A stretch of 44,741 nt of DNA, taken from NCBI GenBank assembly GCA_033762915.1, contig JANRLD010000076.1:1-44741 (forward strand), written 5' to 3'. This DNA comes from Meiothermus sp. (GTDB taxonomy: Bacteria; Deinococcota; Deinococci; Deinococcales; Thermaceae). Of this stretch, positions 3,869 through 24,010 are shown in pieces. The notes beneath the pieces were generated by a model. That model had not been told where the DNA came from. It saw only the letters and a list, made by a program, of their open reading frames with translations, and did not search any database. Each line of letters starts with the position of its first letter. Positions within the stretch are counted from its first letter, which is position 1. A program made the position numbers and the translations under genes.

Positions 3869-4606
3869 CTACGGCGATGCATCTCCCGCCCACGCCTCGA
3901 AGGCCATCACCGCCGAGTCCGCCGTGAAGGGTTCCTTCTGGAAGCCGCCGAACAGGCGGTACTCGAGGCCGAAGCTTCTCAACCAGCGCTCGACCTCGTA
4001 GCGGGTGTAGTAGCGCTGGGTCAGGGTGGGGGTGGTGCGCCGAACCGCGCCGCCCCGGGTGAGCTGATCCACCTGGTAGTTGGTGATGAGCATCTGGGCC
4101 GAGGGATGGTGCTCTTGGTAGAGGAACACCGTGTACCCCTCCTCGTAGGCCCCCTCGAACTTCATCACCCCCTCGGGGCCAATGTGGGCGGGGTTGTAAA
4201 GGTCGAAGGCCAGCCGTCCGCCCTCGGCCAGGTGCCGCACCACGCCCGCCAGCGTCGCGTCTTGCTCCTCGAGCGAGTACAGGTGCATCAACGCGTTGAA
4301 GGGAACGATGATCAGGGGAAACTTGCGCCCCAGCTCGAGCAGCCGCATGTCTCCCTCGAGCCACTGCACCTTCAGCCCCTTGGTGTGCTGCCTGCCGAAC
4401 TTCCGCATCTCGGCGGAGGGCTCGAGCGCCACCACCTCGAGGCCCCGCTGGGCGATGGCCCGGCTCACCCGCCCGGTTCCCGCCCCCAGCTCGAGCACCG
4501 GCCCGCCGTAGTCCTGGGCCAGCCGGGTGTAAAACCCCAGGTCGTCGGCATAGCGCTGGTATTGCAGCACGTAGAGCGGGGTGATCTCGTCGTAGTCCAC
4601 GCTCAT
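3869..4606 (-). CDS. Class I SAM-dependent methyltransferase
   Basis: VLELGAGTGR motif I; GDMR. Confidence 0.88.
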   Translation of the reverse strand: MSVDYDEITPLYVLQYQRYADDLGFYTRLAQDYGGPVLELGAGTGRVSRAIAQRGLEVVALEPSAEMRKFGRQHTKGLKVQWLEGDMRLLELGRKFPLIIVPFNALMHLYSLEEQDATLAGVVRHLAEGGRLAFDLYNPAHIGPEGVMKFEGAYEEGYTVFLYQEHHPSAQMLITNYQVDQLTRGGAVRRTTPTLTQRYYTRYEVERWLRSFGLEYRLFGGFQKEPFTADSAVMAFEAWAGDASP

Positions 4607-5580: not shown

Positions 5581-6159
5581 ATGTGGCATGAGAGCGTTAC
5601 ATTGAGGGGGCAGTTTATAGAGCTCCGGCCGCTGGGTCTGGGTCACGCCGCCGAGATGCTCGAGCACTTCGATGCCGAGATGGTGCAGTACATGACCAAC
5701 GCGCCCCGCGAGGCTACTCTGGGTGCCATGCAGCGCTATATCCAGAGCCTCCTGAACGCCCCCGACCGGGTCAACTGGGCCATCCTCGATTTGCACAGCG
5801 GCAGGCTGGCGGGCCGCACCGGCTACGTACGGGTCAACCCCGACTACCGCTCGGTCGAGACCACCACCTGGATTTTTCCGCCGTTCCAGGGCGGCCACGC
5901 CAACCCCGAGAGCAAGTACCTGCTGATCCGCCACGCCTTCGAGACCCTGGGGGCGGTGCGGGTGCAGTTCCGCGCCGACGCCCGCAACGCCCGCAGTTGC
6001 AAAGCCATCGAAAAGCTGGGGGCCAGGCAGGAGGGCGTGCTGCGCAAAGACCAGATCTACCCCAACGGCGTGGTGCGCGACACCGCCGTTTTCTCCATCA
6101 TCGACGACGAGTGGAAGGCGGTGAAGGAGGGGCTCGAGGGGCGGCTGTACGGCGGATAG
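5581..6159 (+). CDS. GNAT family N-acetyltransferase (RimJ/RimL-like)
   Basis: HAFETLGAVRVQF...NARSCKAIEKLGARQEGVLRK...RDTAVFSI. Confidence 0.88.
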   Translation: MWHESVTLRGQFIELRPLGLGHAAEMLEHFDAEMVQYMTNAPREATLGAMQRYIQSLLNAPDRVNWAILDLHSGRLAGRTGYVRVNPDYRSVETTTWIFPPFQGGHANPESKYLLIRHAFETLGAVRVQFRADARNARSCKAIEKLGARQEGVLRKDQIYPNGVVRDTAVFSIIDDEWKAVKEGLEGRLYGG

Positions 6160-8730: not shown

Positions 8731-9579
8731 TCACTTCAGGCCCGAGCGGAAGGCCCGCACCGCGTCCATCAAGGCCCGCACCCTCGAGGTTTCGACCGGG
8801 TTCCACCACAGGCCATCGCGCTTGAGGGAGGTTCCCACGATTGCGCCGTCGGCCGCCGCGAGGATCTCGGCGCAGTTGCGCAGGTCGAACCCACTACCCA
8901 CGATCACCGGCAGGCCGTGGCCGCCGCGCAGGTGCCCGACCTCCTCCACAGGGGTGGCCTCGCCGGTACGGGTTCCGGTCGCGATCAGCACGTCGGAGTC
9001 GAACCAGGCTGCGTCCTGGGCCTGCTCGCGGATCGGGCGATCCGCCACGATGGCGTGGCTGCCGTGCTTGACGTGGACGTCGCTGAACACCCTGACGTGC
9101 TCGGCCTTGATGCGGGCGCGGTAGCGCAGCGCGGCGGGGGCCGCCGCCTCGATCAGGCCCGAGTTTCCCACGTAGGCGTTGGCCCACTGGCTGACCCGGA
9201 TGAACCGAGCTCCGGCGGCCTGTGCCACTGCCAGCGCGGGGATGGCCGCGTTGGAGAGCACGTTGATGCCGACAGGGAAGCCCGCGCCGCGCACCACCAT
9301 CTGGGCCACGGCGGTCATCGCGGCCACCGTCTCTGGGCCGATGTCCTGGGGCTTGGCGAAGGGCAGATCGCCCTGGTTTTCCACGATCAGCCCGTCAACT
9401 CCGCCCTCGCGGTAGCGCTCGAGTTCTTCCAGGGCCGCGTCGATGATGCGGCTCAGGGGCTCGCCCTGGTAGCGCGGCGCGCCCGGCAGAGGGGGAAGGT
9501 GCAGCATGCCGATGACCGGCTTGGGCACCCCGAACAGCTCGTTCAGCGCGTTGGGCTTGGGAGGGAAGACGCTCGCCAC
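8731..9579 (-). CDS. BtpA/SgcQ family protein
   Basis: IGMLHLPPLPGAP, VENQGDLPF, GINVL, DVHVKH motifs; GTG start inferred. Confidence 0.9.
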   Translation of the reverse strand: MASVFPPKPNALNELFGVPKPVIGMLHLPPLPGAPRYQGEPLSRIIDAALEELERYREGGVDGLIVENQGDLPFAKPQDIGPETVAAMTAVAQMVVRGAGFPVGINVLSNAAIPALAVAQAAGARFIRVSQWANAYVGNSGLIEAAAPAALRYRARIKAEHVRVFSDVHVKHGSHAIVADRPIREQAQDAAWFDSDVLIATGTRTGEATPVEEVGHLRGGHGLPVIVGSGFDLRNCAEILAAADGAIVGTSLKRDGLWWNPVETSRVRALMDAVRAFRSGLK

Positions 9580-16605: not shown

Positions 16606-16680
16606 GGGCTGTTGGTGTCAACGGCAGCACGGCGCTCTCCAAAAGCGTTGGTTCTGGTTCAAATCCAGAGCAGCCCGCCA
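16606..16680 (+). tRNA. tRNA-Trp(CCA)
   Basis: Cloverleaf; loop CTCCAAA; CCA end. Confidence 0.92.
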
Positions 16681-16768
16681 AAAGCGCCACCTGCTGGGGT
16701 GGAAATGCTATCAATCGCAAAGTGGTCGGGGCTATGCCCTAGAGCTACGCCCCAACCCCTGTGCGATT
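16681..16768 (+). ncRNA. Repeated structured spacer RNA, copy 1
   Basis: Homologous to 16942-17016 with compensatory stem changes. Confidence 0.65.
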
Positions 16769-16769
16769 C

Positions 16770-16846
16770 CGTGGAGTAGCTCAGCTAGGAAGAGCCCTGG
16801 TTCGGGATACCAGAGGTCAGAGGTTCAAATCCTCTCTCCGCGACCA
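16770..16846 (+). tRNA. tRNA-Pro(GGG), C33
   Basis: CTGGT-TCGGGAT-ACCAG; C1-G72, A73; CGG in an alternative register. Confidence 0.82.
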
Positions 16847-16849
16847 TTT

Positions 16850-16941
16850 GGGTACGAGGTTGACTATCGGTTGGTCACGCCTCTGTGTAAAAGAGGAGCC
16901 CTAAAAAGCCCCTGTAGGTTCAATTCCTACCGTACCCACCA
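16850..16941 (+). tRNA. tRNA-Tyr(GTA)
   Basis: Loop GTGTAAA; long variable region; CCA. Confidence 0.85.
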
Positions 16942-17016
16942 AAAGCGCCAGCCCCTAAAGCTGGAGATGCTATCAACCGCAACGCGGCCCGGCTGGTCCG
17001 GTCACCCCTGCGCGGT
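16942..17016 (+). ncRNA. Repeated structured spacer RNA, copy 2
   Basis: Homologous to 16681-16768. Confidence 0.65.
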
Positions 17017-17019
17017 AAC

Positions 17020-17093
17020 GCAGAACTGGTGTAGTGGCAACACGCGACCATCCCAAGGTCGGGTTGCAGGTTCGATTCCTGCGTTCTGCTCCA
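17020..17093 (+). tRNA. tRNA-Gly(CCC)
   Basis: Loop ATCCCAA; U73; CCA. Confidence 0.9.
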
Positions 17094-17095
17094 TC

Positions 17096-17170
17096 GCGGA
17101 AATAGCTCAGAGGAAGAGCACTTCGTTGCCAACGAAGAGGCCGGGATTTCAAGACTCCCTTTCCGCACCA
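17096..17170 (+). tRNA. tRNA-Gly(GCC)
   Basis: Loop TTGCCAA; irregular T arm; A73. Confidence 0.85.
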
Positions 17171-17171
17171 T

Positions 17172-17246
17172 GCTTCGGTAGCTCAGAGGTAGAGCACCTG
17201 TCTGAAGAACAGGGGGTCGGTAGCTCAAAACTGCCCCGAAGCGCCA
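17172..17246 (+). tRNA. tRNA-Phe(GAA)
   Basis: Loop CTGAAGA; T loop CTCAAAA. Confidence 0.85.
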
Positions 17247-17249
17247 AGA

Positions 17250-17325
17250 GGGCTCCGTAGCTCAACGGCAGAGCGCCCCGTTTGCACCGGGGAGGCTGGG
17301 GGTTCAAATCCCCTCGAGTCCACCA
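17250..17325 (+). tRNA. tRNA-Ala(TGC)
   Basis: Loop TTTGCAC; G3:U70; bulged acceptor stem. Confidence 0.88.
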
Positions 17326-17367
17326 GCACAACCTGTAGGGACGCGGTACCCTGCTTCGCCGCGAAAT

Positions 17368-17442
17368 GGCTCCATAGTGTAGAGGATTGCACGCCACGTT
17401 GTCCGCGTGAGGGCGGGGGTTCGATTCCCCCTGGGGTCGCCA
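17368..17442 (+). tRNA. tRNA-Asp(GTC)
   Basis: Loop TTGTCCG; G73. Confidence 0.9.
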
Positions 17443-17445
17443 TGA

Positions 17446-17520
17446 TGGGAAGTCGTCTAAAGGCAAAGACGTCTGACTCTGACTCAGAAAATGTTGGTTC
17501 AATTCCAGCCTTCCTAGCCA
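17446..17520 (+). tRNA. tRNA-Gln(CTG)
   Basis: Loop CTCTGAC; U1-A72. Confidence 0.92.
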
Positions 17521-17568
17521 AAACGAAAACGAGAATGCCGCCGCACCGGGCGGCATGTTTTCGAGTTC

Positions 17569-17643
17569 GGTGCCATCGTCCAGCGGGCAGGACGTCACGT
17601 TCTCAGCGTGAAGACAGGGGTTCAAATCCCCTTGGCATCTCCA
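17569..17643 (+). tRNA. tRNA-Glu(CTC)
   Basis: Loop TTCTCAG; CCA. Confidence 0.9.
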
Positions 17644-17752
17644 GAAGGGCTCGAGGGACGCCTTGCTCGAAATGGTGAGGGCGAGCCCTTGCCGGAATCG
17701 AGGGTTTGTGCTAAAACTGTAAGGCTGATTTGAGCCTTATAGGCTCCCGAAC

Positions 17753-17827
17753 GGCCCCATCGTCTAGTGGTTAGGACGCCGCCCTCTCACGGCGGTAACA
17801 GGGGTTCAAATCCCCTTGGGGTCACCA
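17753..17827 (+). tRNA. tRNA-Glu(CTC), canonical housekeeping-like
   Basis: GGCCCCATCGTCTAGTGGTTAGGAC...; loop CTCTCAC. Confidence 0.95.
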
Positions 17828-17889
17828 GCGCACAATCCAGACGGTCTACCTGCCTCGCCCAAAGCGGGGCGGTTGACTTGTGTACGGCG

Positions 17890-17944
17890 TGGGGGCAAAC
17901 AGCCGATCAGACGGCTAAAGGTTCAAACCCTGCGTTCCCTGCCA
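17890..17944 (+). ncRNA. D-armless tRNA-like mini RNA
   Basis: GGGGGC/GTTCCC stem; AGCCG/CGGCT hairpin; AGG-TTCAAAC-CCT T arm; GCCA end. Confidence 0.55.
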
Positions 17945-17946
17945 TT

Positions 17947-18033
17947 GGAAGTGACGCCGAATTGGCTAAGGCACCCGTCTTGAAAACGGACAGTCCTCGA
18001 GACCTGTGGGTTCAATTCCCTCCACTTCCGCCA
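17947..18033 (+). tRNA. tRNA-Ser(TGA)
   Basis: Loop CTTGAAA; long variable arm; G73. Confidence 0.9.
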
Positions 18034-18101
18034 ACCGAACCTAAACACCAGCCACCCTTCCTCGCCAGGTCGAGGGAGGCCGGGAGGGTGAGGGGATGTC
18101 T

Positions 18102-18176
18102 GGGGTCGTAGCTCAATTGGCAGAGCGCTGCTGTGGCATGGCAGAGAAAGGGGTTCGACTCCCCTCGATTCCACCA
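18102..18176 (+). tRNA. tRNA-Ala(GGC)
   Basis: Loop GTGGCAT; G3:U70. Confidence 0.9.
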
Positions 18177-18178
18177 GT

Positions 18179-18253
18179 GAGGGTATCGCCTAACGGATAG
18201 GGCACCAGGCTTCGAACCTGGCCGTCGGGGTTCAAGTCCCTGTACCTTCGCCA
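18179..18253 (+). tRNA. tRNA-Arg(TCG)
   Basis: Loop CTTCGAA. Confidence 0.9.
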
Positions 18254-18280
18254 AACCGGTGCGCTGTCTGCACCAACCAC

Positions 18281-18357
18281 GCTCCCCTCGCCTAAAGGAG
18301 AGGGCAACGGTCTTCTAAACCGCCTATGTGCAGGTTCAATTCCTGCGGGGAGCACCA
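18281..18357 (+). tRNA. tRNA-Arg(TCT)
   Basis: Loop CTTCTAA. Confidence 0.9.
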
Positions 18358-18360
18358 CAT

Positions 18361-18437
18361 TGATCGGTAGCTTAACTCGGTAGAGCGCTCGATTGTTAAT
18401 CGAGTCTGTGCAGGTTCGATGCCTGCCCGATCAGCCA
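18361..18437 (+). tRNA. tRNA-Asn(GTT)
   Basis: Loop TTGTTAA; G73. Confidence 0.9.
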
Positions 18438-18440
18438 CGT

Positions 18441-18516
18441 TCCGAAGTAGCTCAAGAAGTAGAGCGCCTAGCTGTTACCTAGGACTGTGCAGGAGCGAAG
18501 CCTGCCTTCGGAGCCA
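18441..18516 (+). tRNA. tRNA-Asn(GTT), atypical T loop
   Basis: Loop CTGTTAC; T loop AGCGAAG; perfect stems. Confidence 0.82.
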
Positions 18517-18517
18517 T

Positions 18518-18593
18518 AGCGGATAACTGCCCCGGTGGGTAGGCAAGGCCCATAACCTTGACGCGGTGGGTTCGATTCCCACATCTGCAACCA
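18518..18593 (+). tRNA. tRNA-Met(CAT), initiator-like
   Basis: Loop CCCATAA; A1/A72 mismatch; atypical D arm. Confidence 0.75.
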
Positions 18594-18596
18594 AAT

Positions 18597-18673
18597 GCCC
18601 TTGTAGCTCAACTGGCCGAAGCGCCTCTCTTACAAAGAGGAGTATGGAGGTTCGAATCCTCTCCGGGGCACCA
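18597..18673 (+). tRNA. tRNA-Val(TAC)
   Basis: Loop CTTACAA. Confidence 0.88.
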
Positions 18674-18727
18674 AAGGGCTTCGCCCCTGTAAAGCGGCGT
18701 TGCCGAGGGCCATCCGGCCCAGCAAAC

Positions 18728-18801
18728 GCGAGATTGATGTAACGACAGCATGGCTGCCTTCCAAGCAGTCTGTGGGGGTTTGAGTCCTCCATCTCGCTCC
18801 A
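18728..18801 (+). tRNA. tRNA-Gly(TCC)
   Basis: Loop CTTCCAA; U73. Confidence 0.88.
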
Positions 18802-18803
18802 TT

Positions 18804-18879
18804 GTCGGTGTAGCTCAGTGAACAGAGCGCTGGCCTGCGAAGCCAGAGGTCGGTGGTTTGAGTCCACCCATTGACGCCA
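18804..18879 (+). tRNA. tRNA-Arg(GCG)
   Basis: CTGGC-CTGCGAA-GCCAG. Confidence 0.88.
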
Positions 18880-18880
18880 T

Positions 18881-18958
18881 CGGACAGTAGCTCAGCCGGT
18901 CCAGAGCATCCCTCTCATAAGGGGAAGTGCGTTGGTTCGAACCCAACCTGTCCGACCA
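18881..18958 (+). tRNA. tRNA(CAT): elongator Met or Ile2
   Basis: Loop CTCATAA; paired C1-G72. Confidence 0.85.
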
Positions 18959-18963
18959 TTTTC

Positions 18964-19037
18964 GACGCGATGACCGAGTGTCTAGGTGACTGGTTGCAAC
19001 CCAGTTGAGGGCGGTTAGATTCCGCCTCGCGTCTCCA
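18964..19037 (+). tRNA. tRNA-Cys(GCA)
   Basis: Loop TTGCAAC; U73. Confidence 0.88.
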
Positions 19038-19041
19038 CAAT

Positions 19042-19119
19042 CTTGCCTTGGCGCAACGGGTTCAGCGCATCCGTCTGATACGCGGAAGGTTCCTGGTTCG
19101 AGTCCAGGAGGCAAGACCA
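19042..19119 (+). tRNA. tRNA-Ile(GAT)
   Basis: Loop CTGATAC. Confidence 0.9.
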
Positions 19120-19124
19120 CTTTC

Positions 19125-19200
19125 GCTGATGTAGCTCGGTCGGCAGAGCACCCGCTTGGTAAGTGGGAGGCCGTGAGTTCGATCCTCACCATCAGCTCCA
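19125..19200 (+). tRNA. tRNA-Thr(GGT)
   Basis: Loop TTGGTAA. Confidence 0.92.
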
Positions 19201-19203
19201 CAT

Positions 19204-19279
19204 GGGTTTGGTCGTCTAATGGCTAGGACACTCGCTTGTGACGCGAGAGAAGGTGGGTCGGAACCACCCCTTACCCCCA
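19204..19279 (+). tRNA. tRNA-His(GTG), degenerate acceptor stem and T loop
   Basis: Loop TTGTGAC; G-1:C73; two T-T mismatches. Confidence 0.78.
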
Positions 19280-19311
19280 GAAAAGATTTCGCCGCTCGAG
19301 GCGAAATCCGT

Positions 19312-19386
19312 GCCGTGGTAGCTCAATGGTTGAGCGCCTGTTTTGTAAACAGGTGGCTGCCGGTTCAAGTCCGGCTCACGGCTCCA
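19312..19386 (+). tRNA. tRNA-Thr(TGT)
   Basis: Loop TTTGTAA. Confidence 0.92.
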
Positions 19387-19480
19387 GCACAAAGGAGGTG
19401 ATCCGACGGCAAGAACTCTTTAGCAGTACCACCCGAAAAAGGGTTCGGAGAGCGCAACGGTTTCGCCGAACCCCACCCCT

Positions 19481-19558
19481 GCTCCTGTGACGGGAACCGG
19501 CATACCTCTGCGCGCGAGAAGTGCAGGCTTGGGGGTTCAACTCCCCCTGGGAGCACCA
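19481..19558 (+). tRNA. tRNA-Leu(GAG), short variable loop
   Basis: Loop GCGAGAA; Leu-type D arm; A73. Confidence 0.78.
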
Positions 19559-19584
19559 AAATACTTGCCCTCGTGGCAGGCCGT

Positions 19585-19659
19585 GAAAGTGTGGCGCAAC
19601 CTGGCAGACGCGCACGGCTCAGAACCGTGTTGTTGAGGGTTCAAATCCCTCCACTTTCA
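19585..19659 (+). tRNA. tRNA-Leu(CAG), short variable loop, CCA not encoded
   Basis: Loop CTCAGAA; followed by CTA. Confidence 0.85.
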
Positions 19660-19664
19660 CTATC

Positions 19665-19741
19665 CAGAGGTTGGACTCGAGGCGAGTCTCCGCGCTTGGA
19701 ACGCGGACATCGGGCAGGTTCGACTCCTGCACCTCTGACCA
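19665..19741 (+). tRNA. tRNA-Pro(TGG)
   Basis: Loop CTTGGAA; C1-G72, A73. Confidence 0.85.
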
Positions 19742-19742
19742 T

Positions 19743-19820
19743 GATTCTGTGACGGGAACTGGCAGACCTGCTCCGCTTAGAACGGAGTGCTTGGGAGTTC
19801 GAATCTCCCCAGAATCACCA
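19743..19820 (+). tRNA. tRNA-Leu(TAG), short variable loop
   Basis: Loop CTTAGAA. Confidence 0.88.
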
Positions 19821-19838
19821 GAAGGTCTTTGCGCCTAT

Positions 19839-19918
19839 CGGGGGTGAAATGAGAACAGTCATTGGTTCTCTAACAGCGAAGACTTGGTTACTTGGTTCAA
19901 CTCCAAAACCCCCGACCA
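19839..19918 (+). ncRNA. tRNA-like RNA with D/anticodon region replaced by the ACAGC module
   Basis: CGGGGGT/ACCCCCG-ACCA; T arm; GAGAAC/GTTCTC-TA-ACAGCGA. Confidence 0.75.
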
Positions 19919-19923
19919 ACTTC

Positions 19924-20001
19924 GCTCTTGTGACGGGAACTGGCATACCTTGCTGTCTCAAAAACAGCAGCTTGGAGGTTCAAATCCTCCCAGGAGCACC
20001 A
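19924..20001 (+). tRNA. tRNA-Leu(CAA), short variable loop
   Basis: Loop CTCAAAA. Confidence 0.88.
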
Positions 20002-20004
20002 CTC

Positions 20005-20081
20005 CTCGAGGTGGCGTAACTGGCAAACGCAGCGGTCTTAAGAACCGTCCCATGCCGGTTCGAATCCCGCCCTCGAGACCA
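20005..20081 (+). tRNA. tRNA-Leu(TAA), short variable loop
   Basis: Loop CTTAAGA. Confidence 0.85.
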
Positions 20082-20090
20082 GCAGTACAC

Positions 20091-20178
20091 GGAAGGGTGG
20101 GCGAGCGGCTTATGCCACCTCACTGCTAAGGAGGAGAGCCTTTGGGCTCCGCAGGTTCAAATCCTGTCCCTTCCGCCA
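20091..20178 (+). tRNA. tRNA-Ser(GCT)
   Basis: Loop CTGCTAA; long variable arm; G73. Confidence 0.9.
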
Positions 20179-20210
20179 CAAGCCGCCTCGAGCTGAGGCG
20201 GCAGTTTTAT

Positions 20211-20328
20211 GGAAGCGTAGCTCAGAAGGTAGAGCAGGTAAAAAACGAGAGTTGGCCAATTCTCTGACAGCAAACCCATTCGCCTTGAACGCGCCGGGTC
20301 GTGGGTTCGAGTCCTACCGCTTCCACCA
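20211..20328 (+). ncRNA. 118-nt tRNA-like RNA with the ACAGCAA module inserted in the anticodon arm
   Basis: Canonical acceptor, D and T arms plus CCA; insert GAGAGTT/AATTCTC-TG-ACAGCAA. Confidence 0.8.
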
Positions 20329-20360
20329 ACACTCACTCGAGCCTAACCGCTCGAGTCCAT

Positions 20361-20436
20361 GCTGACTTCGCCTAACGGCCAAGGCCCCCGCCTCTTAAGC
20401 GGGTTGATGAAGGTTCAAATCCTTCAGTCAGCACCA
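20361..20436 (+). tRNA. tRNA-Lys(CTT)
   Basis: Loop CTCTTAA. Confidence 0.9.
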
Positions 20437-20437
20437 T

Positions 20438-20514
20438 GTCCTTGTAGCTCAACGGCCAGAGCAGCGGTCTTTTAAACCGTATTGGTGTAGGTTCGAGTCC
20501 TACCGAGGACACCA
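20438..20514 (+). tRNA. tRNA-Lys(TTT)
   Basis: Loop CTTTTAA. Confidence 0.92.
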
Positions 20515-20628
20515 CAAATACCCCTCCGGCCTTCGGCCACCTCCCCTGATCCTGATGTTTGCAGTGAATCAAGCCTCGAAGTTCGCCTCGAGGAATGCAC
20601 GCCCAAGGAGAGGCAAGGAGAGGCACAT

Positions 20629-20702
20629 GCTTTCGTAACTCAAGGTAGAGTGGCTGGTTCTTACCCAGTTCGGTGCAGGTTCAAGTCCTGCCGAAAGCAC
20701 CA
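20629..20702 (+). tRNA. tRNA-Lys(CTT), second copy
   Basis: GCTGG-TTCTTAC-CCAGT. Confidence 0.85.
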
Positions 20703-20820
20703 AAACTCACTGACATGGGCCGAGTAGCCTGTGTTTGCGGGCTACTCGAGCCCCTCACCCCAACCGCTCTCCCAAAGGGAGAGAGGACTTAATCGGGCTC
20801 GAGTCAGGAGCGTGATCCCC

Positions 20821-21390
20821 ATGAAGGAGGCAGAGAGACAGCAGCACACTATAGCTGCGAACGCGCAGCACGGCTCGCGCCGCGAGTCCATCAACATTGA
20901 CACCCCCAGAGTCCTAGTGCTCAACGCCGGGTTCCAGCCCCTGGGGATCGCCAGCATTCGCCGCGTGGTGGGCCTGGTGATGAGCGGGCTTGCCGAGGTG
21001 GTGGAGGAGTCGGGCGATTTCCTCCGCACCCCCACCAGCCAGTACCCCGTCCCCAAGATCGTCCGCGTCAAGAAGATGATCCGGCCCCGCTTGCGCGGAC
21101 TGCGTCTGAGCCGCCGCAACGTCTTCCGGCGCGACGCCCACACCTGTGCCTACTGCGGCAAGCGCACCTCAGACCTGACCCTCGACCATGTAATTCCGCG
21201 CTCGAGGGGCGGCAGCAACACCTGGGACAACCTGGTCTCGGCTTGCCAGAGCTGTAACCACCGCAAGGCCGACCGCACCCCCGAGGAGGCGGGCATGAAG
21301 CTCCTCCACAAGCCCGCCAAGCCCAGCCAGAGCGTGTGGCTGGACATCCTCGAGGTGCCCCGCGAGTGGAGGGTGTACTTCGGGGCGTAA
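20821..21390 (+). CDS. HNH endonuclease (McrA/HNH_5-like), start uncertain
   Basis: VLVLNAGFQPL; CAYCG...TLDHVIPRSRGG...NLVSACQSCNHRK. Confidence 0.92.
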   Translation: MKEAERQQHTIAANAQHGSRRESINIDTPRVLVLNAGFQPLGIASIRRVVGLVMSGLAEVVEESGDFLRTPTSQYPVPKIVRVKKMIRPRLRGLRLSRRNVFRRDAHTCAYCGKRTSDLTLDHVIPRSRGGSNTWDNLVSACQSCNHRKADRTPEEAGMKLLHKPAKPSQSVWLDILEVPREWRVYFGA

Positions 21391-21473
21391 AGGGCGGGTG
21401 TAGGGCGTAAAGTGCAAGGAATCTTAAGGGCCTTTGCATACCCTTTTGCTCTTCGCCCTATACCCGCGCTCCT

Positions 21474-21521
21474 AGGCTGCGCTAAACCGGCTTCTTCCCC
21501 AAAGAGAGCCGTCGCGGCCTG
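21474..21521 (+). repeat. Degenerate AGGCYGC/GCGGCCTG hairpin lacking ACAGCAA
   Basis: Same closing stem as the hairpins at 21629 and 21708. Confidence 0.5.
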
Positions 21522-21628
21522 TAAAGATCGTCATCAAAGCCATCGATCTCGAGGCGAGGGCGAACTCGAGGCTTCCCGAAACCCCACATAACCCACCGAA
21601 CCCAAGCCCATCGGCTACCCTGTTACCA

Positions 21629-21681
21629 AGGCCGCCTACAGCAACCAGACTCCTCCACTTGGGGTTACACTGTGCGGCCTG
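21629..21681 (+). ncRNA. ACAGCAA-module hairpin A
   Basis: AGGCCGC-CT-ACAGCAA...GCGGCCTG. Confidence 0.7.
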
Positions 21682-21707
21682 TTCTTTTGGGTGCCGAGCC
21701 GAAACAG

Positions 21708-21762
21708 AGGCCGCGCACAGCAAAAACCCCCATTCCCTTTTCAGGAAAGAGCATGCGGCCTG
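21708..21762 (+). ncRNA. ACAGCAA-module hairpin B (abuts the RBS)
   Basis: AGGCCGC-GC-ACAGCAA...GCGGCCTG, then AAGGAG. Confidence 0.7.
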
Positions 21763-21775
21763 AAGGAGCACAGCT

Positions 21776-23290
21776 ATGAACTTTCTCGAGCTTATGAACC
21801 AGGCCCAGGCTGCTGCCACCTGGAACGGCGCGCTCAGTCACGCCACCAGTGGCAGCGAGCTGGTAGACCTCTACTACCGAGCCGTGCGCGTGCCCGGCTC
21901 GGGCAAGGGTTTCCAGCACGGCGAGTATGTGCCCAAGCAGTTCCTTAGCTACCTCGCCAAGTCCTGGATGGTGAGCCCCGAGGCCGCACTACGCCTGCTG
22001 TTCCACTTGCGCGATGTGCGCGAGGGCAAGGGCGAGCGGGCCATGTTCTATGCGGGCATGGTCTGGCTGGCCAAGACCGACTTGGGGCTGTTCCTCCGCG
22101 CTCTAGCCCTGGTGCCCGAGTACGGCGCATGGAAGGACGTGCTCGAGATCGCCGTCCTCCTCGGCGACGAGCGCGTGACCGCCGAAGCGGTGCGGCTGTT
22201 TGTTCGGGCCCTTCAGGACGGCGACGCCCTGGCCCACCAAGCCGGTCGCCCCGGCGACGCGGCTCTAGCAGCCAAGTGGGCCCCCAGCGAGGGCAAGCGC
22301 CTCGACCGCGCCCTGGGTTTCGTCGAGCGCGTGTGCAAGGCCGCCGGCTGGAGCCGCAAGACCTACCGCGATACCCTGGTGGCGCTGCGGCGGGTGGTCG
22401 AGACCCCCATGAGTGCACGCGAGTGGGAGCGCATCGAGTACGCCCACGTGCCCGCCAAGGCCATGTTGACCTACAACAAGGCTTTCGAGCGCCACGCCCC
22501 CGAGGCTTTCAAGGGCTACCTCGAGGCCGTCCGGAAGGGCGAGGCCAGGATCAACGCCGCTGCCCTGATGGCCCACGAGATCGTGGCGAGGTGGTTCTCC
22601 GGAGCCCTGGGCGAGGCCGAGGAGTTGCAGTGGCGGGCGCTGGTCGAGCAGTATGGCGCCAGCCTCGAGAACACCCTCTGCGTGGTGGACGTTTCTGGCT
22701 CGATGCAGTCGGGCTGGGGCCGGGTCAAGCCCATCCACGTGGCGCTGGGCCTGGGTCTGCTGGCGGCCCACGCGCAGAAGGGCGTGTTCGCGGGCGCCTT
22801 CGTCACCTTCAGCGCCCAGCCCACCCTGCAGCGCGTCAACCTGCGGGCCAGGCTGGCCACCCAGCTCCAGAGCATGAACACCGCCGCCTGGGACATGAAC
22901 ACCGACATCCAGGCCGTGTTCCAGCTGATCCTGGACACCGCCCGGGCCAACCGGCTGCCCCAGCGCCAGTTGCCCCGGCGCGTCCTGATCTTCAGCGACA
23001 TGCAGTTCGACCAGGCCACCGGCGGCAACCAGCTCACCAACTTCCAGAAGGCCCAGCGGGACTTCGAGCGGGCGGGCTATGTGCTGCCCGAGCTGATCTT
23101 CTGGAACGTCAACGGCGCGACCGCCGACTTCCCCGTCCAGATGCACCAGAGCGGCGCGGTGCTGGTGTCGGGCTGGAACCAGACCCTCTTCAAGGCCCTC
23201 TCGCAGAACCGCATCGTCGACCCCCTGCAGATGGTGCTCGAGATCCTCGGCAAGCCCCGCTACGACGCGGTGGGCAAGCTGGTCGCGTGA
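21776..23290 (+). CDS. DUF2828 family protein (TROVE/Ro60-like helical domain + vWA)
   Basis: NGALSHATSG, LRDVREGKGER, YGAWKD, AAKWAPSE, MIDAS DVSGSM, FSDMQFD, PELIFWN; family recognised from motifs, not by database search. Confidence 0.88.
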   Translation: MNFLELMNQAQAAATWNGALSHATSGSELVDLYYRAVRVPGSGKGFQHGEYVPKQFLSYLAKSWMVSPEAALRLLFHLRDVREGKGERAMFYAGMVWLAKTDLGLFLRALALVPEYGAWKDVLEIAVLLGDERVTAEAVRLFVRALQDGDALAHQAGRPGDAALAAKWAPSEGKRLDRALGFVERVCKAAGWSRKTYRDTLVALRRVVETPMSAREWERIEYAHVPAKAMLTYNKAFERHAPEAFKGYLEAVRKGEARINAAALMAHEIVARWFSGALGEAEELQWRALVEQYGASLENTLCVVDVSGSMQSGWGRVKPIHVALGLGLLAAHAQKGVFAGAFVTFSAQPTLQRVNLRARLATQLQSMNTAAWDMNTDIQAVFQLILDTARANRLPQRQLPRRVLIFSDMQFDQATGGNQLTNFQKAQRDFERAGYVLPELIFWNVNGATADFPVQMHQSGAVLVSGWNQTLFKALSQNRIVDPLQMVLEILGKPRYDAVGKLVA

Positions 23291-23325
23291 CCCGAGTGGG
23301 GTCCATCGATTCCCCACAGTAACCC

Positions 23326-23418
23326 CAAGCCCCGTACAGCAAACCTCTAAACTCGGGTTAGGCCGAAAGGCTGCCGGTTCAAATCCAGCGAGATGGCTCG
23401 CGCCATGAAAGGGGCTTG
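23326..23418 (+). ncRNA. ACAGCAA-module RNA with permuted tRNA-like arms (Y-RNA-like)
   Basis: CAAGCCCC-GT-ACAGCAA...GGTTCAAATCC...GGGGCTTG. Confidence 0.75.
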
Positions 23419-23469
23419 TGATGGGGCCTTGCTCGCGTAGGGAGATTCATGAGCTACAAATTGCCCTCG

Positions 23470-23501
23470 AGGCAGGACGCGAACTGCGTCCTGCCTTTTT
23501 T
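23470..23501 (+). terminator. Intrinsic terminator closing the tRNA/HNH/DUF2828 unit
   Basis: AGGCAGGACGC-GAACT-GCGTCCTGCCT-TTTTT. Confidence 0.85.
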
Positions 23502-24010
23502 CATGGCTTGACCGGGGCGGCTTCGAACTCGATGGGGGTGTGTTCGGAGAAGCCGCCGGTGGTGAGCATCTCGAACTTGATGCTGTCCGGGCTGGCGGTG
23601 CCCTTGTAGCTGTGCTTTAGCTCGCGGGTCTCGCTCGCCCCGCCCAGCGACTCCTGCGTCTTGACCACGAAGCGCAGGGTGTCGCCCTCCATCCGGCCCT
23701 CGAGGATGGCCCGCCGCACGCCCAGGAACGAGGCGGTGCCGCTCAGCTCCTTGCCCTCGAGTTTGAAATTGAACTGCTCGGTGCGGCTCACCCCCCAGTC
23801 GTAGCGCACCTCGGCCCGCCATACACCCGAAACGTCCATCGTGGGTGCGGTCCTGGCCTCCTCGCTGACCCCGAAGAACTTGTTCCACAAGTCCATGATC
23901 GAGTCCAGGTTGCCCGCTGCGCCTCCCGCCGTCGCCAGCACCGCGATGGCCGCCACCCCGTAGCGGCGGTACTTCATCCACGGCTTGGCCTTGCTCGCCT
24001 TATTGCTCAT
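23501..24010 (-). CDS. Hypothetical exported or membrane-anchored protein
   Basis: N-terminal hydrophobic segment; beta-rich domain (DVSGVW). Confidence 0.7.
   Translation of the reverse strand: MSNKASKAKPWMKYRRYGVAAIAVLATAGGAAGNLDSIMDLWNKFFGVSEEARTAPTMDVSGVWRAEVRYDWGVSRTEQFNFKLEGKELSGTASFLGVRRAILEGRMEGDTLRFVVKTQESLGGASETRELKHSYKGTASPDSIKFEMLTTGGFSEHTPIEFEAAPVKP

Follow-up and report, generated by a model that had tools for sequence, protein, structure and literature searches.

An interrupted tRNA gene of Meiothermus sp. with an ACAGCAA module in its anticodon stem, a probable Y-RNA-like partner of a DUF2828/DUF7788 protein

Introduction

The contig JANRLD010000076.1 of Meiothermus sp. (assembly GCA_033762915.1), analysed here over its 44,741 nucleotides (nt) and called the window, comes from a genome of 5.38 Mb with 65% guanine plus cytosine (G+C) and is covered whole (44.7 kb). 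It contains, at 20211-20328, a gene of 118 nt that has the arms of a tRNA and an extra module in its anticodon arm. The question raised by this locus is what such a gene is for: an ordinary tRNA freed from an intervening sequence, a decaying tRNA gene, or an RNA with a task of its own. A sequence-only reading had taken it for a tRNA mimic with a protein-binding handle. The core of this idea is strongly supported by the comparative evidence presented below (conservation, covariation, association with DUF2828 genes, a Ro60-like protein model and exchange of the insert between relatives); no partner had been named in that reading, and the data point to the gene at 21776-23290.

Ro60 and the Y RNAs form an RNA-surveillance system conserved from bacteria to humans. 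The element is real and conserved, and is most likely a tRNA-topology member of an undescribed family of partner RNAs belonging to a divergent branch of Ro60. We consider that it is probably a Y-RNA-like partner, in the shape of a tRNA, of the DUF2828/DUF7788 protein encoded downstream (21776-23290), to which binding is predicted.

Results

Structure of the interrupted tRNA gene

The element and its anticodon arm were divided as follows.

20211-20328, plus strand: the element (118 nt), a tRNA body with a module in the anticodon stem and an encoded CCA (Rfam, ARAGORN, covariance model R1)
20237-20238, plus strand: GG, the outer two anticodon-stem pairs (G27-C, G28-C), pairing with CC at 20294-20295
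20239-20246, plus strand: A-rich 5' linker UAAAAAAC, start of the 42-nt insert, with an A-run that alignment A2 shows to be conserved (consensus AAAAA; 90% or more of the rows have A32)
20247-20264, plus strand: P1 hairpin GAGAGUU-GGCC-AAUUCUC, with covariation in the family alignment
20265-20273, plus strand: UG-ACAGCAA, of which ACAGCAA itself is 20267-20273, predicted single-stranded
20274-20280, plus strand: 3' linker ACCCAUU (7 nt), end of the insert
20281-20293, plus strand: mini-arm CGC-CUUGAAC-GCG, the inner three anticodon-stem pairs with a 7-nt loop (U33, anticodon-like UGA, A37)

The acceptor stem pairs GGAAGCG (20211-20217) with CGCUUCC (20318-20324) and is followed by A73 and the encoded CCA (20325-20328). 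The D arm was found at 20220-20235 (GCUC-AGAAGGUA-GAGC) and the T arm at 20301-20317 (GUGGG-UUCGAGU-CCUAC, with one G.U pair). All these arms had been correctly placed by the sequence-only reading, which called them perfect, a slightly generous word in view of the G.U pair of the T arm; the hairpin, the UG-ACAGCAA and the mini-arm were also recovered exactly where it had put them. The anticodon arm had been described as replaced by about 59 nt. Such a stretch is present, but its description has been refined: a 5-base-pair (bp) anticodon stem with a 7-nt loop is otherwise complete, and the true insert is limited to the 42 nt of 20239-20280, which interrupt the 5' strand of this stem.

The Rfam tRNA model (RF00005) matched 20211-20325 with 42.8 bits (gathering score 29; E = 3.8e-08) over model positions 1-71, 57 nt standing in place of 15 positions of the anticodon arm. 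The element departs from a tRNA in that its 5-bp anticodon stem is not contiguous but split by 42 nt, and it was missed by ARAGORN with default settings and by the Rfam run on the whole window. When introns were allowed, ARAGORN called a tRNA with the anticodon UGA and a 42-nt intervening sequence. In Rfam 15 the element matched only the tRNA family and, up to E = 10, no intron or ribozyme family, so that the earlier statement that the insert is too short for a group I or group II intron holds to this extent. A pseudogene and a riboswitch or ribozyme in the insert were considered and dropped, the latter two giving no Rfam match. The acceptor stem carries A3-U70, and neither pseudoknots nor a tag reading frame were seen in the element.

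An unconstrained fold of the element reached -37 kcal/mol (z = -1.14), and 23 of 200 shuffled sequences folded as well or better. This fold energy being unremarkable, the case against chance is comparative and not energetic. No second copy of the insert was found in the genome and no terminal repeats were seen. A megablast search of the array against phage sequences gave no match, and the blastn matches to plasmids and phages were restricted to the neighbouring ordinary tRNAs.

Conservation and covariation of the ACAGCAA module

Loci were fetched around DUF2828 genes, 80 from bacteria or archaea (of at least 589 relatives) and 80 from viruses (of at least 541). In these 160 loci and the window, the intron-permitting mode of ARAGORN gave 51 tRNAs whose "introns" did not exceed 130 nt. 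Exact ACAGCAA was present in 33 of them, and the other 18 showed, by eye, one- or two-letter variants at the same place. An alignment was made of 44 of the 51 after removal of two L053 rows with a long P1 extension, four L112/L114 rows duplicating L110, and L160. C58, G60 and C61 of ACAGCAA (CxGC) are invariant in the 44 rows; 90% or more of them also conserve A59 and A62, the A-run and, at the P1 loop, U...G / A.

The covariance model R1 was built from this 44-row alignment. It scored the element at 92.4 bits, L079, which is outside the training set, at 84.9 bits, and ordinary-length tRNAs at no more than 57.2 bits. At 69.4 bits or above, R1 gave 57 matches. Of the 86 sources searched, 31 contributed to them, namely the window, 5 of the bacterial loci and 25 of the 80 viral ones. 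The module has the same position in these 57 tRNA-like genes, nearly all of which are neighbours of DUF2828/DUF7788 genes. In the 54 distinct rows, 93.7% of the cells were paired, against 63.3% after shuffling and 42-50% when the partners were slid by 1-3 columns. Changes on both sides were observed for 7 of 7 P1 pairs, with 94.1% of cells paired over the 54 distinct sequences; the acceptor (99.5%) and T-arm (99.3%) cells were nearly all paired. The outer anticodon pairs (helix 3) reached 86.5%, with double changes in both pairs, and the inner ones only 48% in a fixed register because the split site shifts by one bp between subgroups.

Conservation was also followed between strains. Sequencing runs were looked up for 20000-23500, and none of RNA was listed. 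DNA contigs of four metagenome runs were compared with the window over 19900-23600, and one 7.5-kb contig was found to cover the region with about 5-9% differences. Those listed for the element affect two letters of the D loop, the A-run (one deletion, one change), position 20251 (G>A, which turns a G.U pair of P1 into A-U) and the 3' linker (one deleted base); among the differences listed (best-supported rows), none falls in ACAGCAA, the mini-arm, the T arm or the acceptor stem. The contig lacks the hairpin at 20182-20202 and has many differences in the following tRNA-Lys and in the spacers. In two of the runs, 218 nt at 20479-20698 (the end of tRNA-Lys(UUU), a spacer and most of the third tRNA-Lys) are replaced by 29 letters, which indicates that the 3' end of the array varies between strains.

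These observations bear on a first alternative, according to which the element would be a decaying tRNA gene struck by a small mobile insertion acting at the DNA level (similar to miniature inverted-repeat transposable elements, or homing-related) and devoid of function as RNA. The presence of an HNH open reading frame (ORF) 400 nt downstream, the uniqueness of the insert in the genome and the other odd or weak tRNA-like stretches of the array speak for it. We nevertheless hold it to be very improbable, since the P1 changes are compensatory with G.U tolerated, the single-stranded letters are invariant, the tRNA arms are intact across the family, neither a second copy nor terminal repeats were detected, the variant strain keeps the element while the adjacent spacers change, and the association with DUF2828 genes described below is strand-specific.

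Association with DUF2828 genes and similarity of the encoded protein to Ro60

The proposed partner is encoded downstream of the element.

21776-23290, plus strand: DUF2828/DUF7788 protein of 504 amino acids with a vWA domain bearing DxSxS (Pfam, AlphaFold2, Foldseek)

The gene lies 1.45 kb from the element on the same strand, three tRNA-Lys genes and the HNH ORF being located in between. The association of module and gene was measured with a strict composite pattern (ACAGCAA, then 3-75 nt, then a T loop whose stem has 4 or more of its 5 pairs) in a near zone defined as the same strand from -1000 to +500 nt of the DUF2828 gene, or 108.6 kb over the bacterial loci. In these bacterial near zones the pattern occurred 47 times, in 31 of 80 loci, against 2 occurrences in the other 1.76 Mb (both strands), a density gap of about 380-fold. 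The viral loci gave 28 near matches in 22 of 80 and 16 "far" ones which, among those listed, are on the strand of the gene and mostly belong to tandem runs just beyond +500. The element itself shows what characterises the ACAGCAA RNAs of DUF2828 loci, i.e. P1 followed after 0-4 nt by ACAGCAA or a one-letter variant, a T arm and the same strand as the gene.

The search was also run from the RNA side. A DNA pattern of P1 and ACAGCAA proved too loose, 67 of the 80 fetched loci not being the RNA, and only the 13 confirmed by R1 were used; the rejected matches were by eye mostly coding sequence, with a T-loop-like motif downstream in 2 of 68. A DUF2828 ORF was present within 3.5 kb in 11 of the 13 viral loci having an R1 match of at least 68.8 bits.

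A model of the 504-residue protein was built by AlphaFold2 from a 32-sequence alignment and had a mean predicted local distance difference test score (pLDDT) of 82.4. Compared with the PDB by Foldseek, its top 13 matches were all Ro60/TROVE structures (E from 6.9e-09 to 1.1e-05, template-modelling scores 0.48-0.59), which span about 510-585 columns and come from phage phiLo, Deinococcus, Xenopus and human. The family profile searched against PDB sequences also had its best matches with Ro60, weakly (E 0.006). D305, S307 and S309, which form the DxSxS of the vWA part, are invariant, and by the Foldseek matches and these residues the DUF2828 protein agrees with the make-up of the Ro60/TROVE family, a HEAT-repeat ring plus a vWA domain with DxSxS. 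The Pfam TROVE model gave no match to the 504-residue protein, nor any in the genome of the window. Judged from the predicted structure, the DUF2828/DUF7788 protein is a structural homologue of Ro60 over its full length. Some database records label its relatives "TROVE domain-containing", "Ro sixty-related" or "Ro-like RNA binding protein".

Within the order, DUF2828 was detected in only 1 of 363 genomes. The family is present in 695 cultured phage records. In hundreds of phages, among them Felixounavirus phages of E. coli K-12 and cluster L mycobacteriophages, its best annotation is "RNA-binding protein".

The module outside interrupted tRNA genes

A second RNA with the same motif follows the DUF2828 gene.

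23327-23418, plus strand: RNA2, an "open P1" ACAGCAA RNA with an AAGCCCC/GGGGCUU stem, starting 37 nt after the DUF2828 stop codon

In RNA2, GU-ACAGCAA (ACAGCAA at 23336-23342) is followed by a linker, a hairpin with a GNRA cap, a T arm in which 4 of 5 pairs form (GCCGG-UUCAAAU-CCAGC, 23373-23389) and one more hairpin; downstream of it lies a terminator-like site (23469-23497). Rfam gave only a weak unrelated match on it. One of its hairpin loops holds GCCGAAAG, which fits the Ro60 motif pattern, possibly by chance.

RNAs of this open form were observed at many DUF2828 loci. They begin with the 5' strand of P1 (often AAG-NNNN), continue with NN-ACAGCAA, a linker and a T arm, and end with the 3' strand (NNNN-CUU-G); D and anticodon arms are sometimes present. 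At least 8 contiguous P1 pairs were obtained for 29 of 95 of them, against 61 of 1900 shuffled sequences. In the tRNA-embedded form, P1 is closed by a 4-nt loop and lies inside the anticodon stem, and this closed form reads as the open one with its ends joined by a loop and its chain opened at the tRNA acceptor stem.

The module also exists in a bare form. In the viral contigs L201, L205, L223 and L249, an AUCUUG-NNN-AAGAU hairpin followed by ACAGCAA was found beside a DUF2828 ORF, with no T arm. Three of these four contigs are labelled as metagenome-assembled genomes of giant viruses, suggesting that the handle may also serve outside bacteria.

Among cultured phages, Escherichia phage ekra (host K-12; L306, about 5890-6080) has UCAGCAA and ACAGCAA, and Mycobacterium phage Faith1 (L307, about 3960-4200) has three ACAGCAA motifs, in both cases in an unannotated gap beside the DUF2828 gene. 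Around the ekra and Faith1 RNAs Rfam gave no match other than tRNA, and on a phage example of a module tRNA likewise tRNA only; on eight DUF2828 loci no match reached the gathering score. The family of module RNAs is absent from Rfam 15, and no description of it was found in the openly accessible literature on DUF2828, Ro60 and tRNA introns.

These forms bear on the main alternative, in which the insert would be a new, protein-dependent intervening sequence. After its removal the halves would be ligated, for example by an RtcB-type ligase, to give a working 76-nt tRNA, and the Ro60-like protein would be a chaperone, a splicing factor or a mere neighbour. As with known tRNA introns, the exact removal of the intervening 42 nt restores a canonical tRNA with a 5-bp stem and a 7-nt loop having U33 and A37. 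Virtual excision yielded a perfect 5-bp split stem in 35 of the 54 members (57 of 1080 when shuffled), with inserts of 38-51 nt and varied anticodon-like triplets on similar bodies; U33 was present in 26 of these 35 and a purine at 37 in 30. Two RtcB homologues are encoded elsewhere in the genome, and the element stands within a tRNA array with an encoded CCA like its neighbours. Splicing is kept as the main alternative because most members preserve the split anticodon stem together with its loop.

On the other side, the module also occurs without exons, in RNA2, in the open-P1 RNAs and in the four bare hairpins. An intron cannot exist without exons, which a protein-binding unit can, and these forms therefore favour the latter. 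No self-splicing intron or ribozyme family of Rfam was recognised in the element, and the perfect split stem is missing in 19 of the 54 members. Archaeal bulge-helix-bulge introns occur at non-canonical positions and can sit in the anticodon stem, and group I introns are self-splicing, of about 200 nt or more and placed in the anticodon loop, whereas the present insert is of 42 nt and lies in the stem. Archaeal spliced tRNAs also differ in that the genome of the window is bacterial (LptF/LptG genes among the window proteins mark it as Gram-negative) and lacks the splicing endonuclease domain PF01974, for which no match was obtained in this 95.5%-complete genome and matches were obtained in four archaeal control genomes, and in that the motif of the insert also occurs outside tRNAs.

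The expected product of splicing is itself awkward. The GGAAGCG acceptor strand and the CUUGAAC loop of the element resemble those of the serine tRNAs of the array (GGAAGGG, GGAAGUG; loop CUUGAAA). The spliced RNA would have a serine anticodon and A73 together with a short variable arm (5-nt variable loop, ordinary D arm), whereas bacterial seryl-tRNA synthetase depends on a long variable arm, and a long-arm tRNA with the anticodon UGA is already present in the array at 17947-18033. In a weak test on partly sampled arrays, 4 of 14 module tRNAs repeated the anticodon of a normal tRNA of the same locus, which gives no sign of gap filling. Taken as a whole, removal of the insert to produce a decoding tRNA appears unlikely to us.

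Exchange of the insert in relatives of the same order

No full-length match to the 118 nt was found in 60 relatives. The best partial matches covered the T arm and the acceptor stem, with 84-89% identity, in three genomes (G040, G056 and G060) which have arrays of 25-30 tRNA genes where an interrupted tRNA of 130-229 nt comes after tRNA-Ser(GCU). Alignment A4 revealed one scaffold in the window and the relatives, split at the same place after GG and the A-run. The order is a shared D arm, A-GG, an A-run ending in C, the insert, a 3-pair mini-arm (CUU-NNN-N loop), CC-GGGUC, the T arm and CCA.

The inserts of the relatives (47 to about 143 nt) have GCCGAAG opposite CCUUG. The pattern GNCGAAN0-1G has been proposed as the conserved motif by which Ro60 recognises bacterial Y RNAs (PMC4201824). 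Of the 4 RNAs of the relatives of the a/c type, 3 carry it exactly and the fourth with one letter off, for a chance expectation of about 0.08 per 200 nt; it is absent from 20211-20328. In all three relatives a gene with TROVE and vWA_Ro60 domains is located directly downstream of the interrupted tRNA, and at the corresponding place the genome of the window has the HNH ORF and the DUF2828/DUF7788/vWA gene, with no TROVE. Homologous bodies thus carry a Y-RNA-type insert with a Ro60 gene or an ACAGCAA insert with a DUF2828 gene, so that the type of insert tracks the type of Ro60-family protein. Six proteins of the window searched by tblastn against the loci of the three relatives gave no match, and the link between these loci consists of the tRNAs and Pfam TROVE.

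The Ro60-adjacent interrupted tRNAs are found at 9616-9844 of L021, 3405-3631 of L022, and 9331-9460 and 9173-9320 of L023, all on the minus strand. They have a tRNA-Ala-like acceptor stem (G3:U70 in 3 of 4) and anticodon-like loops UCU or UCA, and in two of the four the terminal loop of the Y-RNA-type insert is larger by about 95 nt. They are in effect circularly permuted YrlA-like RNAs, and their relation to YrlA is the same as that of the closed to the open ACAGCAA form. No description of them was found in the openly accessible literature. The same loci contain a second kind of interrupted tRNA-like sequence of about 210 nt (L022 4132-4344, L023 10471-10682, L021 10806-11015, all on the minus strand), with G3:U70, an encoded CCA and an insert of about 126-128 nt that starts after CCG(C) with AAAAC and is devoid of GNCGAAN0-1G.

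Genomic setting of the array

The other features of the region are the following.

16606-20702, plus strand: tRNA array in which ARAGORN called 34 genes with encoded CCA; the element lies near its 3' end
20182-20202, plus strand: terminator-like hairpin of 9 pairs, GC-rich, followed by AGUUUUAU, between tRNA-Ser(GCU) and the element; absent from the metagenome variant
20731-21390, plus strand: HNH endonuclease ORF (Pfam HNH_5 and HNH), between the array and the Ro60-like gene
23469-23503, plus strand: terminator-like hairpin of 13 pairs with a T-run, closing the unit formed by the array, HNH, DUF2828 and RNA2

The element comes directly after tRNA-Ser(GCU) (20091-20178). The G+C content of the array is 0.56-0.58, against 0.61-0.69 in the rest of the window. 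With 5.38 Mb the genome compares with 2.4-3.9 Mb in 25 genomes of the same genus, and ARAGORN called 86 tRNAs in it, 34 of which belong to this array.

The array has further peculiarities. The tRNAs with leucine anticodons (CAG, UAG, CAA, UAA) at 19585-20081 are all 76-78 nt long, their variable loop being short and their D arms odd, and this is also true of the arrays of relatives (L022, L023); a long variable arm is normal for bacterial tRNA-Leu. At a low threshold ARAGORN also made calls in gaps of the array (19838-19918, 19481-19558 and 17847-17924), which include a CUA anticodon (amber-reading, labelled "Pyl"), Leu(GAG) and Thr(UGU); none of them reached the Rfam gathering score in the whole-window run.

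Discussion

Among known RNAs, YrlA (RF02553) offers the closest comparison. According to its description (Chen et al. 2014, PMC4201824), its gene shares the strand of a Ro60-family gene and lies no more than a few kb from it, in phages too, and this small RNA combines a protein-recognition module with a tRNA-like domain having D and T arms, all of which recalls the present element. In YrlA, however, the Ro60-binding stem is made by the two ends of the RNA, and a closed hairpin takes the place of the "acceptor", whereas the ends of the element make a true 7-bp acceptor stem with CCA and its handle is an internal hairpin, an arrangement that amounts to a circular permutation. The handles differ as well, ACAGCAA with an AAG/CUU-type stem replacing GNCGAAN0-1G, and the protein is DUF2828/DUF7788 and not Pfam TROVE. 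The Rfam YrlA model gave the element 20.2 bits (threshold 69) in a weak match that borrows the T arm of the preceding tRNA. YrlA RNAs are expected within about 4 kb of a Ro60 gene on the same strand; the element lies 1.45 kb from a structural homologue lacking Pfam TROVE. By score, motif, topology and Pfam family of the protein, the element is not a member of YrlA. Table S2 of the same source lists 22 phages with YrlA, all with canonical Ro60 (Bxz1-like mycobacteriophages, Bacillus phage G and CcrColossus), and names there neither a Felixounavirus nor Faith1.

Yrn1 of Deinococcus radiodurans and Yrl1/Yrl2 of Thermus phage phiLo are encoded, like the element, beside the gene of their Ro60 partner (PMC4201824, PMC12135203). 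Yrn1 has D- and T-like arms in tRNA order and its terminal stem at the acceptor position, similar to the open-P1 RNAs of L064, L092 and L099. These RNAs nevertheless have a CGAA-type motif and bind canonical Ro60, and none is a complete tRNA with an internal handle. The interrupted tRNAs of the three relatives share with the element the scaffold, the position, the split site and the CCA, and differ by the GCCGAAG-type motif, the G3:U70 acceptor stems and the TROVE+vWA_Ro60 gene that follows. Transfer-messenger RNA (tmRNA) also has tRNA-like ends and a large internal insert. It was rejected as a candidate: the element differs by its full D arm, its anticodon hairpin and A3-U70 instead of G3:U70, and the sub-threshold Rfam matches to tmRNA were restricted to the RNAs of the relatives (23-28 bits against 47).

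In the reading that we prefer, the 118-nt gene would give rise to a non-decoding, tRNA-shaped RNA acting like a bacterial Y RNA for the DUF2828 protein. The 42-nt insert would be the protein-specific handle, composed of the A-rich linker, P1 and the single-stranded ACAGCAA. The complete tRNA body would allow the RNA to be excised from the array transcript by the ordinary tRNA-processing enzymes and kept stable, and would show other factors a tRNA shape whose anticodon-like loop is exposed. We infer the binding, the processing and the role of the ribonucleoprotein from the comparisons above.

Several points weigh against this assignment. A terminator-like hairpin (20182-20202) stands just upstream of the element. 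RNA2 abuts the DUF2828 gene and the element is 1.45 kb off, so that RNA2 could be the sole real partner. Of the DUF2828 loci, 49 of the 80 bacterial and 58 of the 80 viral ones had no strict-motif match near the gene; the regular expression is narrow and the flank at some loci short, but the association is not universal. The loci L212 and L219, which hold one shared sequence, carry module tRNAs with no DUF2828 within 3.5 kb. The R1 score of the element is partly circular because the element is a training row of that model. Finally, the conserved frame of split stem and loop is not obviously needed by a pure carrier of a handle; it fits splicing or recognition of the anticodon loop, and it calls for an explanation under every reading.

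Recognition of the anticodon loop is the basis of a further proposal, in which the RNA-protein pair is real and the tRNA part serves as bait or decoy. Anticodon nucleases, or other tRNA-targeting enzymes of defence or repair, would recognise its exposed loop, and the Ro60-like ring would then sequester or sense these enzymes or channel them to repair or decay. This is a functional refinement of the partner-RNA assignment and concerns the same object. In agreement with it, the U33/R37 loop frame is conserved even though, in one phage, near-identical bodies differ in the triplet, and the setting is that of phage tRNA arrays, with the protein in 695 cultured phage records. In its favour we also count the link of Ro60-Y RNA complexes to RNA repair and decay, as given in two sources (PMC7824862; PMC12135203). 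The absence of a clean anticodon hairpin in 19 of 54 members and, often, of any in the open-P1 forms speaks against it, and as a specific function we judge it quite unlikely.

A wider picture can be put forward, as a tentative one that we would not yet back against its alternatives. DUF2828/DUF7788 would be a second and very widespread branch of Ro60, spread over 695 cultured phage records, many bacteria, giant-virus contigs and eukaryotes, with its own undescribed class of partner RNAs having an AAG/CUU-ended stem and ACAGCAA. Phages and mobile islands would have plugged whole tRNAs, whose anticodon loops can be exchanged, onto this handle. The resulting Ro60-like particles would display specific tRNA anticodon arms and might, for example, serve in the contest over tRNA cleavage as baits, as sensors or as platforms for repair. 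The same scaffold would swap its handle together with the protein.

If the partner-RNA assignment of the element is correct, DUF2828/DUF7788, a large uncharacterised family, gains a predicted RNA ligand with a simple recognition element. A third topology would be added to the tRNA-like Y RNAs, that of a real tRNA with an internal handle, which suggests a route from tRNA genes to mimics of the YrlA type, and the relatives would offer a case in which nature has swapped the handle of one scaffold between Ro60 and DUF2828. The assignment would also account for unannotated gaps in phage tRNA arrays and for the "tRNAs with introns" mis-called by gene finders. Should the displayed anticodon loops matter, the finding would bear on the way in which phages and mobile elements respond to tRNA-targeting defence.

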